This document shows, piece after piece, positions 59,579 through 61,285 of a stretch of DNA of 64,000 nt. The stretch is from an uncultured bacterium. GTDB taxonomy: Bacteria; Acidobacteriota; Thermoanaerobaculia; Multivoradales; JAHZIX01. A program made the translations under genes and the position numbers. The notes beneath the pieces were generated by a model. That model saw only the letters and a program-made list of their open reading frames with translations. It had not been told where the DNA came from and did no database searches. Positions within the stretch are counted from its first letter, which is position 1, and each line of letters begins with the position of its first letter. Where the stretch lies: NCBI GenBank assembly GCA_965368975.1, contig CBDUPA010000001.1, forward strand, positions 384,001 to 448,000, read 5' to 3'.

Positions 59579-59606
59579 TAGTGGGATGACCAGCGCGGCT
59601 ATCGCA
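59579..59606 (-). promoter_or_regulatory. Candidate ECF promoter for the RHS/PLC operon
   Basis: TGCGAT-agccgcgctggtcatcc-CACTA; same boxes and 17-bp spacer as 60582-60609. Confidence 0.7.
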
Positions 59607-59740
59607 CCAGGGAGGAAACTTTCTTGGCTGGGGCTAGGGATCGGAGCGGTCGCAGGGGGGGTGAAGCCCTCGGGCGAGGGCCTCGGCACGGCTCAGGTGG
59701 GACTCGGGAAGAGGCCGGGGATTCGAGAAGAGGCGGGGGT

Positions 59741-60544
59741 TCAGGAAGGCGTCTGCAGACGGAAGGGATAGCTGCCGACGTCGACCGTACCGCCGTCGGG
59801 AAGGTTGCCGGTGACGGTCAGGCGGTAGTCGCCGGTGGGCAGGAAGCCCGAGGGAAAGGTGAGCTGGATGACTTCCAGCACGTTCGGCTGCAAGTCATCC
59901 AGCTCGAAGCGAGCTGTACCCTCGGCGTCGAGGATACGCACGCGGTAAGACTGGATGCGTAGATCGCTTCCGGCGTCGATGGCCAAGGACCAGGGGGTAC
60001 CTGCGTCGACGATTGGTTCACCGGCGGCAGCTTCGTCGCCGCGCATCACTCCCAGCAGTGTGGTCGGGATCTGGACGAGGGGTGCTTGTAGCAAGCCGGA
60101 CGGCGGCGATTCTGAGCCAGGCGGCGTGGTGGCCAGCTGCTGGCGCAGGCTCTGGTTGACGCTCCAGGAGAAGAGTAGGGCGAGACCGAGTACGAGCACA
60201 GCGGCGGTGCTCAGCCACGGGCGGTAGCGGCCCAGCCAGCCGAGCAAGCCGGCGCGCAGCACGCTGGCTTGCACCACGGCGCGTGCGGCCTCTTGCGCCG
60301 CGACAGTGTGCAGGCCGCGCTCGAAACTGCGCTGCACTTCCAGCTCTTCCTGGCAGCGAGCGCAGTCCAGGAAGTGTGCCTCGAAGCGGGCCTCCTCCGC
60401 GGCAGACAGGGCGCCGCGGTGGTAGCGCTCGATCACGTTCGCTGCCTCGATCTCGTCATGATCCAGGGGTGCGTCGAACTGGTTCGGTGCTGGGGGCTCG
60501 GTAGGTTCTAGTGGATAATCGGGGTCCGTGTCAGGGTTTTCCAT
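59741..60544 (-). CDS. Zinc-binding (zf-HC2) transmembrane anti-sigma factor
   Basis: FEAHFLDCARC (HxxxCxxC), one TM, C-terminal Ig-like domain. Confidence 0.88.
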   Translation of the reverse strand: MENPDTDPDYPLEPTEPPAPNQFDAPLDHDEIEAANVIERYHRGALSAAEEARFEAHFLDCARCQEELEVQRSFERGLHTVAAQEAARAVVQASVLRAGLLGWLGRYRPWLSTAAVLVLGLALLFSWSVNQSLRQQLATTPPGSESPPSGLLQAPLVQIPTTLLGVMRGDEAAAGEPIVDAGTPWSLAIDAGSDLRIQSYRVRILDAEGTARFELDDLQPNVLEVIQLTFPSGFLPTGDYRLTVTGNLPDGGTVDVGSYPFRLQTPS

Positions 60545-60580
60545 TGTTTCGCTTCCAAAGTCAATCAGATCATTAAGCCT

Positions 60581-61285
60581 TTAGTGATGCGAGACGGCCA
60601 CGGATCGCATCCAGAGCGAAAAAAGGTGCCACCAGGCGCTGGCGAAGAGCAGCAGGAAGAGAACGTGAGCCTGAGACGATCCAGGTCGCAAGTCTCTCAT
60701 CCGCTCCATGTAGAGTTCTTTGTAGCGCTGGCGAGCTCGATGCAAGACGCGATTGAATTGCAGACTGCTCAGATCGTGATCGGCAGCGATGGTGTCCTTG
60801 TCTTCGTCGGCCAGGTAGAAGCGAAACAGAATCTCGCGATCGCGCTCGGTCGGTAGATCTTCGAGGGTGCGTCGCACCAGCTGCGCCTCTTCGTTGCGCA
60901 GCAGGTCGCGCAGCGGGCTGCCCTGAGCTTGCTCGCCGTCACCAGAGTCGCTCTCGGTCTCCACTGCTTCGCTGTCCGCTTCGGTCTTGCGGCGGATGGC
61001 CTTGCGGTAGTGCTCGGTCGCCAGGTTGCGCGCCAGGCTCGAGAGAAAACTGGATAGCTTGGCACTATCGCGCAGCTCACCGGCCCGCAGCTTGACCACC
61101 GCCAGGCGGAAGGTGTCTTGGAACAAGTCTTCCGCTTCGACCCGCGTGCGCGTGTGGCGTTGCAGGACGATGCGCACGCCACGGGCGTAGCGCTCGACCA
61201 GCGCTGCCTCGGCTTCTGGCTGCCCTCGGCGGATCTGCTCGGCGAGCTGTGCAGGACTCTGGGCTGGCCGACTGGAAGCGTTCAT
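60581..61285 (-). CDS. ECF sigma-70 factor with a hydrophobic C-terminal extension
   Basis: AEDLFQDTF and ARNLATEHYRK (region 2); REILFRFY...VLHRARQR (region 4); tail HVLFLLLFASAWWHLFSLW. Confidence 0.9.
   Translation of the reverse strand: MNASSRPAQSPAQLAEQIRRGQPEAEAALVERYARGVRIVLQRHTRTRVEAEDLFQDTFRLAVVKLRAGELRDSAKLSSFLSSLARNLATEHYRKAIRRKTEADSEAVETESDSGDGEQAQGSPLRDLLRNEEAQLVRRTLEDLPTERDREILFRFYLADEDKDTIAADHDLSSLQFNRVLHRARQRYKELYMERMRDLRPGSSQAHVLFLLLFASAWWHLFSLWMRSVAVSHH
60582..60609 (-). promoter_or_regulatory. Candidate ECF promoter for the anti-sigma gene, inside the last codons of the sigma gene
   Basis: TGCGAT-ccgtggccgtctcgcat-CACTA, 37 bp upstream of the anti-sigma ATG. Confidence 0.7.

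Follow-up and report, generated by a model that had tools for sequence, protein, structure and literature searches.

TGCGAT-N17-CACT as a candidate promoter motif of an ECF sigma factor cassette in uncultured Acidobacteriota

We analysed a stretch of 64,000 nucleotides, hereafter the window, from an uncultured bacterium of the Acidobacteriota (Thermoanaerobaculia; contig CBDUPA010000001.1 of assembly GCA_965368975.1, positions 384,001 to 448,000), in which a gene for a sigma factor of the extracytoplasmic function (ECF) type is followed on the minus strand by an anti-sigma factor gene and by an operon encoding an RHS-type and a PI-PLC-like protein. The bipartite motif TGCGAT-N17-CACT is found ahead of the anti-sigma gene, a site that we call P2, and ahead of the RHS operon (P3). 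Our results suggest that P2 and P3 are very probably the cognate promoters of the ECF sigma factor encoded at 60581-61285. We favor this reading because the spacing and strand of the motif are fixed across orthologous loci, the motif recurs at three syntenic positions, a matrix derived from other genomes ranks the two window sites above every other position of their genome, synonymous positions within the boxes are constrained, and a variant first box tends to recur among the sites of a given locus. A preliminary description of the window had proposed that the two sites represent a -35/-10 pair of the adjacent ECF sigma factor, providing feedback through the anti-sigma factor and an RHS/PLC output, and these lines of comparative evidence, DNA-level constraint included, support that prediction.

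The motif in the window, its genome and orthologous loci

A pattern search of the window with TGCGAT-N17-CACTA returned exactly two matches without mismatches, both on the minus strand (60609-60582 and 59606-59579), and no additional site was detected in the whole window when allowing up to one mismatch. By direct reading, the 17-nt spacers of the two sites are identical at only 4 of 17 positions. P2 lies within the last codons of the sigma gene, the final two bases of the site being the first two of the sigma stop codon (60583-60581), and the anti-sigma ATG comes 38 nt past its CACT. P3 is located 135 nt past the anti-sigma stop and 111 nt ahead of the ATG of a 97-aa gene. Transcription is predicted to start at about 60578-60574 for P2 and at about 59575-59571 for P3. 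The anatomy given in the preliminary description was accurate on each of these points: two minus-strand sites with the same 6-bp and 5-bp boxes, a 17-bp spacer of otherwise dissimilar sequence, and one copy within the final codons of the sigma gene, overlapping its stop.

Genomes of the same family and order were found to encode orthologs of the sigma factor with 48-67% identity, and many more came from metagenome-assembled genomes (MAGs) of Acidobacteriota labelled Thermoanaerobaculia, Holophagales and similar (80 loci, three of them on contigs already in the set). Searches with tblastn revealed a conserved cassette composed of a TPR-CHAT gene, often a small open reading frame (ORF), then the sigma gene and then the anti-sigma gene. 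We searched 88 such loci (642,391 bases), a set from which the window's own locus and three duplicate contigs were left out. The exact pattern TGCGAT-N17-CACT was present 48 times on the strand of the sigma gene versus twice on the opposite strand, which makes it a bipartite motif with a fixed spacer that is oriented to the downstream gene. Spacers of 13-16 and 18-21 nt yielded 0-2 matches on either strand. With up to one mismatch, there were 102 sites on the sigma strand versus 8 on the opposite strand (111 versus 8 in the full set of 92 loci). Across genomes, the motif is found far beyond what these comparisons would lead one to expect by chance.

The sites fall at three syntenic positions: upstream of the small ORF or the sigma gene (P1), at the 3' end of the sigma gene (P2) and downstream of the anti-sigma gene (P3). 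Using a matrix threshold of 16, the 41 loci whose sigma factor is at least 50% identical to that of the window presented P1 in 31 of 38 eligible cases, P2 in 31 of 40 and P3 in 15 of 38, with 79 sites on the sigma strand and a single one on the other. The 47 loci with sigma identity below 50% presented P1 in 4 of 46 eligible cases, P2 in 9 of 46 and P3 in 11 of 42. The matrix behind these counts was trained on sites of the same loci, so that they describe the position of the sites rather than their presence. Most P1 sites end 32-39 nt before the ATG of the small ORF.

We then considered how specific the motif is within the genome of the window. In the 7,125,974 bases of the genome, the exact 11-base pattern is present only as the two copies at this locus, against about 0.45 occurrences expected from word frequencies; spacers of 14-20 nt other than 17 gave 0-1 matches. 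A 33-position matrix, built from 101 unique sites that all come from genomes other than the window's, was used to scan both strands of this 7.1-Mb genome. The best score was obtained for P3 (26.8) and the second best for P2 (22.7), these being the only two positions to score at least 20. The third match (C1:374702, minus strand, 18.1) was considered as a further regulon member and rejected, since no clear gene follows it on that strand. On these grounds, the motif marks just two places in its own genome. The preliminary description had suggested scanning the genome for the motif and its background frequency, and both the exact pattern and the matrix ranks answer in favor of the window sites.

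The presence of the motif follows that of the sigma factor. Five related genomes with a sigma ortholog contained 38 matches to a 10-base pattern versus 14 for a reversed-pattern control, and in five others of the same order that have no close ortholog the counts were 11 versus 11; these are small samples of related genomes. The first box also varies from locus to locus (its third base can be G or A, for instance, or its fourth base A), and such variants tend to be common to the sites of one locus. Across 34 loci with at least two sites, nine pairs shared a variant when 1.7 were expected, and none of 5000 shuffles reached nine, a count to which local duplications contribute in at least one locus. 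Relatives also carry additional full-consensus sites, at distances of 8-15 kb from the sigma locus or on separate contigs (e.g., G003:C1:94974, G007:C1:1079757 and G027:C28:29152), so the regulons of these relatives would hold a few more genes than that of the window.

The family consensus consists of TGCGAT, a spacer whose start is weakly rich in A, T and C, a C-G/A-T-C block (positions 19-22) and, after one free base, CACT (positions 24-27). Over 103 unique sites, the positions that are informative outside the selected ones are 7 (A), 9 (T), 10, 18, 20 (G or A), 21 (T), 22 (C) and 29 (T), and the A at position 28 is unconserved (A 37, C 31, G 15, T 20). In ECF promoters, the -35 and -10 cores are about 16-17 nt apart; the -35 element typically contains AAC and the -10 box is CGT at canonical spacing. 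The motif does not combine AAC in the -35 element with CGT in the -10 element at canonical spacing, its first box being TGCGAT. Because CACT lies at the canonical -10 distance and the C-G/A-T-C block only 12 nt after the first box, we infer that CACT is the -10 core and the upstream block its extension. Two details of the preliminary description need amending accordingly in scope: of its second box, CACTA, only CACT is conserved; and its statement that the motif differs from the GGAAC/CGT consensus is, as regards CGT, only partly true of the two window sites, since the family possesses the C-G/A-T-C block, whose equivalents in the window are CGCA (P2) and CATC (P3).

Selection on P2 and alternative explanations

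P2 overlaps coding sequence, and its conservation was therefore examined by codon position. In most orthologs with at least 50% identity, the site lies inside a C-terminal extension of the sigma factor and encodes part of a hydrophobic tail: 30 of 41 P2 sites are inside the sigma ORF, most of them encoding the same hydrophobic peptide, and the other 11 fall between the sigma stop and the anti-sigma gene. Among 28 sites in the same frame, the third codon positions within the boxes carry T at position 1 (28/28), G at position 4 (27/28) and A at position 25 (28/28). In the bodies of the same sigma genes, T and A occupy the third position of 6.3% and 4.1% of codons, respectively, and 5.3% of Thr/Pro codons end in A. 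Third codon positions within the P2 spacer are free to vary. The P2 of the window is in a different frame from that of the orthologs, with T at codon position 2. This comparison is partly circular, the sites having been chosen by the matrix, but the contrast is nonetheless extreme, and it shows, by sequence comparison, that the P2 boxes are under DNA-level selection inside coding sequence.

Several observations weigh against P2 and P3 being promoters of this sigma factor. For the window and for the related loci, the evidence is comparative sequence evidence throughout, and related genomes are non-independent samples. The first box is without the AAC typical of ECF -35 elements, and the blocks that precede CACT in the window deviate from that of the family. 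The conservation of P2 could partly be at the protein level, given its overlap with the conserved hydrophobic tail of the sigma factor, and some loci possess the tail without a P2 site above threshold. Finally, P1, the autoregulatory site that normally anchors such predictions, is missing from the genome of the window: no matrix score of at least 10 was found near 61757-62100, so that the copy upstream of the sigma factor's own operon that relatives present is absent here. Compared with the closest ortholog (L051:3352-3539), about 128 bp, P1 included, are gone from the corresponding segment of the window (61757-61798), and only 42 bp lie between the CHAT stop and the small ORF. Transcription of the sigma gene is here probably driven from upstream, together with the TPR-CHAT gene.

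One alternative is that the two sites of the window are alike by chance. Taken on its own, the match within the window is weak evidence, and not significant: two or more matches at up to one mismatch arose in 10 of 100 dinucleotide shuffles of the window sequence (mean 0.48), a result that counts against the promoter reading. When pairs of random genome segments were compared, some exact 6-N(15..19)-5 motif was shared by 82 of 4000 pairs of 100 bp, 189 of 4000 pairs of 150 bp and 375 of 4000 pairs of 200 bp. With about 5% of random 150-bp pairs sharing such a motif, pairs of this sort are to be expected by anyone who looks through many intergenic regions. Even when the window and its own genome are taken together, the evidence for a motif beyond chance is only modest (weak to moderate). 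It is the cross-genome data, namely the matrix ranks, the strand and spacer counts and the synonymous constraint, that in practice refute a chance resemblance, to which we give almost no credence.

A regulator other than this sigma factor, either a different sigma factor or a DNA-binding protein, could instead bind the motif, its site being inherited with the cassette. The first box, which lacks AAC, fits such an explanation, and the link between sigma factor and motif is drawn purely from sequence; moreover, the genome of the window encodes several other ECF sigma factors, including a 41%-identical paralog. However, no motif site was found near this paralog on C6, the motif occurs only where the sigma ortholog does, and its first box varies with the locus. 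The motif is also asymmetric and bipartite, with a strict 17-nt spacer and a strict orientation to the downstream genes, and it ends about 30-40 nt before start codons, which is the geometry of a promoter and unlike that of a typical operator. We regard this alternative as improbable. Marginally less probable still, in our view, is that only P3 (and P1 in relatives) are promoters and that P2 does not fire, being a relic or being kept mainly as sequence encoding the tail. The shared hydrophobic peptide fits such a scenario, as do the terminator-like hairpin and T run just upstream of the window's P2 and the lower score of this site relative to P3 (22.7 versus 26.8). Yet synonymous positions in the boxes are fixed on rare bases while the wobble positions of the spacer vary, the motif of the window is in another frame, and more than a quarter of the P2 sites (11 of 41) are intergenic between the sigma and anti-sigma genes; the P3 promoter of E. 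coli rseA further shows that promoters so placed are functional (PMC8595263). Recognition of P2 and P3 by the adjacent ECF sigma factor thus remains the reading that we prefer.

The cassette, its cargo and a proposed circuit

The features of the locus are presented in Table 1. The sigma factor possesses regions 2 and 4 only, and both models exceed their cut-offs (PF04542 Sigma70_r2, 35.3 bits versus 24; TIGR02937, 62 bits versus 42.9, covering model positions 1-162 of 165). Its profile matches the solved ECF sigma factors SigW, SigL, SigH and sigmaE at a distance (best E 9e-10), and no NCBIfam subfamily cut-off was reached for this clade. The tail of the protein (60581-60720, minus strand) extends about 40 aa after region 4 and includes a hydrophobic stretch of about 20 residues. 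Similar tails were observed in orthologs with at least 50% identity; more distant orthologs stop right after region 4. This tail may serve as a membrane anchor or as a regulatory extension, or it may be a by-product of an ORF that runs through a promoter.

Table 1. Predicted promoters and genes of the locus, in window coordinates
Feature	Position	Strand	Remarks
P2, predicted ECF-dependent promoter	60582..60609	minus	TGCGAT 60609-60604, 17-nt spacer, CACT 60586-60583
P3, predicted ECF-dependent output promoter	59579..59606	minus	TGCGAT 59606-59601, CACT 59583-59580
ECF sigma factor gene	60581..61285	minus	ATG at 61285; upstream GTG at 61312 also open
Anti-sigma factor gene	59741..60544	minus	PF13490, 25.5 bits versus 22.2
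Conserved 143-aa gene	61325..61756	minus	between the CHAT and sigma genes; no known family found
TPR-CHAT (caspase-like protease) gene	61799..64000, on to about 65227 (C1:449227)	minus	PF12770 CHAT, 5.2e-62; TPR_12
97-aa gene, first behind P3	59175..59468	minus	no named family match
2877-aa RHS-type protein gene, second behind P3	50385..59018	minus	TIGR03696 Rhs_assc_core, residues 2558-2633, 2.9e-17; DUF6443
491-aa PI-PLC-like gene	48888..50363	minus	PF16670 PI-PLC-C1, 4.4e-13; starts 21 nt after the RHS gene

In nearly all loci, the anti-sigma gene directly follows the sigma gene. Its product has a zf-HC2 domain at the N-terminus, a single hydrophobic span and, at the C-terminus, a domain of about 140 aa, and the H-x3-C-x2-C motif together with the adjoining sigma gene points to a class I, zinc-binding anti-sigma factor. 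The TPR-CHAT gene, an open frame of 1169 codons, is upstream of the sigma gene in most loci, and its sequence contains the His and Cys dyad motifs. By eye, its N-terminus, a basic stretch followed by a hydrophobic one, resembles a signal peptide or anchor, so that the protease may be extracytoplasmic in its action, as is the TPR-CHAT part of DdvA.

The 143-aa gene is the small ORF found first behind P1 in relatives, and its family is always located between the CHAT and sigma genes. The alignment of this family reveals a nearly invariant G-D-P ... V-W-G motif near the C-terminus. The protein is predicted to be a small all-beta barrel (pLDDT 82). A Foldseek search of this model against PDB gave no match at E of at most 0.001; a wide VIA search had a best Z of 7.7 (designed barrels, the Cap15 barrel, avidins and lipocalins), which is background level; and the Atlas returned nothing at 0.9 or above.

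Behind P3, the three output genes are separated by 156 nt (97-aa gene to RHS) and 21 nt (RHS to PLC-like), and no terminator-like sites were found between them on that strand. The 97-aa protein belongs to a widespread unnamed family, the Atlas containing clusters of hypothetical proteins of 97-102 aa at 0.95-0.96; the nearest named family, H-type lectin, was matched at 0.85 only and is a lead at most. The protein shows a weak likeness (10/20 identities, E 0.004) to the first gene behind P3 in one orthologous locus, L016. The cargo behind P3 varies among loci and includes metallo-beta-lactamase/alkyl-sulfatase-like, multihaem cytochrome-TPR, RoxA-like and phage tail collar domain proteins as well as unknowns. 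From this comparison, the RHS operon is the cargo of the window's genome and does not characterise the family. Another very long ORF (2617 aa, 32004-39857, minus strand) is present further downstream on the same strand.

We also recorded structural features around the two sites. Within the sequence of the sigma tail, some 20 nt ahead of the TGCGAT box of P2, there is a terminator-like hairpin (60645-60629, minus strand) followed by six T. We considered that it might insulate P2 from the sigma gene and rejected this idea: orthologs show no evident hairpin of this kind with a T run ahead of P2, and the region holds no excess of terminator-like sites (5 versus 7.4 in shuffles). The predicted P3 leader (59460-59578, minus strand) folds better than shuffled sequences (-41.9 kcal/mol, z = -2.9), and its predicted 5' end carries a hairpin with a 9-bp stem. 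A search of Rfam over 58800-62000 with E up to 1 gave no match, the P3 leader included, and a scan for sigma-70-type promoters over 48500-64000 returned no site.

These elements suggest the following circuit. Region 4 of the sigma factor would contact the first box TGCGAT, and region 2 would contact CACT, usually preceded by the C-G/A-T-C block. At P2, the active sigma factor would start transcription a few bases past CACT, giving a leader of about 30 nt and the transmembrane zf-HC2 anti-sigma factor. More active sigma factor would yield more of its own inhibitor, and P2 would therefore provide negative feedback. From P3, a leader of about 105 nt would be followed by the output operon, that is the 97-aa gene, the RHS gene and the PLC-like gene. 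In most relatives, P1 is a third copy, upstream of the small ORF and the sigma gene, and would add positive autoregulation. The circuit of the preliminary description is retained for its feedback and output sites, and it needs to be completed by this P1, which relatives carry and the window's genome lacks. A more elaborate signalling module, widespread in Acidobacteriota, can be imagined, although we consider it doubtful: a secreted, separately encoded TPR-CHAT protein might serve both as sensor and as site-1 protease for the anti-sigma factor, and the released sigma factor might fire up to three unusual promoters, one of them dual-coded with the hydrophobic C-terminal tail of the sigma factor itself. 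The positive-feedback promoter would have been deleted here, leaving negative feedback only and an RHS toxin operon as output.

Our results provide a promoter model, TGCGAT-N17-CACT with a C-G/A-T-C block before CACT, for an uncharacterised ECF clade that is common in Acidobacteriota represented by MAGs only. In the genome of the window, the predicted regulon is local and very small, being composed of the anti-sigma gene and the RHS/PLC operon, and the same cassette would drive different cargo in different genomes.

Comparison with known systems

A literature search for a TGCGAT motif associated with an ECF sigma factor, or for sigma factors of Thermoanaerobaculia, retrieved nothing relevant. 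The main text of the ECF classification (PMC7826278) makes no mention of CHAT, and its supplementary group-specific motifs may already list TGCGAT-N17-CACT. ECF sigma factors usually autoregulate, and this is the accepted basis of clade-specific promoter prediction (PMC7826278). Like the autoregulated ECF promoters predicted in that work, the motif described here is bipartite with fixed spacing, is specific to one sigma clade and precedes the sigma operon of relatives as well as a few nearby target genes; as in that classification, it was detected by comparing orthologous loci.

The motif departs from the usual ECF consensus in both of its elements. Its first box, TGCGAT, has no AAC, and its second element combines CACT with a C-G/A-T-C block 5 nt upstream.

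The type of circuit, including an internal promoter for the anti-sigma gene, is already known in kind, as textbook knowledge. In E. coli, the sigmaE-dependent promoter rseA P3 lies inside rpoE and drives rseABC (PMC8595263, citing Rhodius 2006). P2 likewise lies inside the sigma coding region, ahead of the anti-sigma gene that it is predicted to drive, so that negative feedback would be independent of the transcription of the sigma gene. The two promoters differ in their leaders: rseA P3 starts 228 nt before rseA and has a long regulated leader, whereas P2 of the window overlaps the sigma stop and would have a leader of about 30 nt. Unlike in the E. coli system, the promoter upstream of the sigma gene is absent in the window's genome.

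A parallel for the cassette as a whole is DdvS/DdvA of Myxococcus xanthus, in which the partner of the ECF sigma factor DdvS is an anti-sigma factor, DdvA, fused to a periplasmic TPR-CHAT part (PMC11506125). Both systems combine an ECF sigma factor, a zinc-finger anti-sigma factor and an apparently extracytoplasmic TPR-CHAT module, and both have a neighboring conflict-type locus as output, predicted in our case. There is no DdvA-type fusion here: the CHAT gene (61799 onwards) and the anti-sigma gene (59741-60544) are separate, with two genes between them. Unlike in DdvA, the TPR-CHAT protein is encoded by a separate upstream gene, the anti-sigma factor has its own unrelated C-terminal domain, and the cargo is variable, consisting here of an RHS operon. 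The conserved association of a TPR-CHAT protease gene with an ECF sigma/anti-sigma pair extends a theme already represented by DdvA and by the CRISPR-associated craspase systems.

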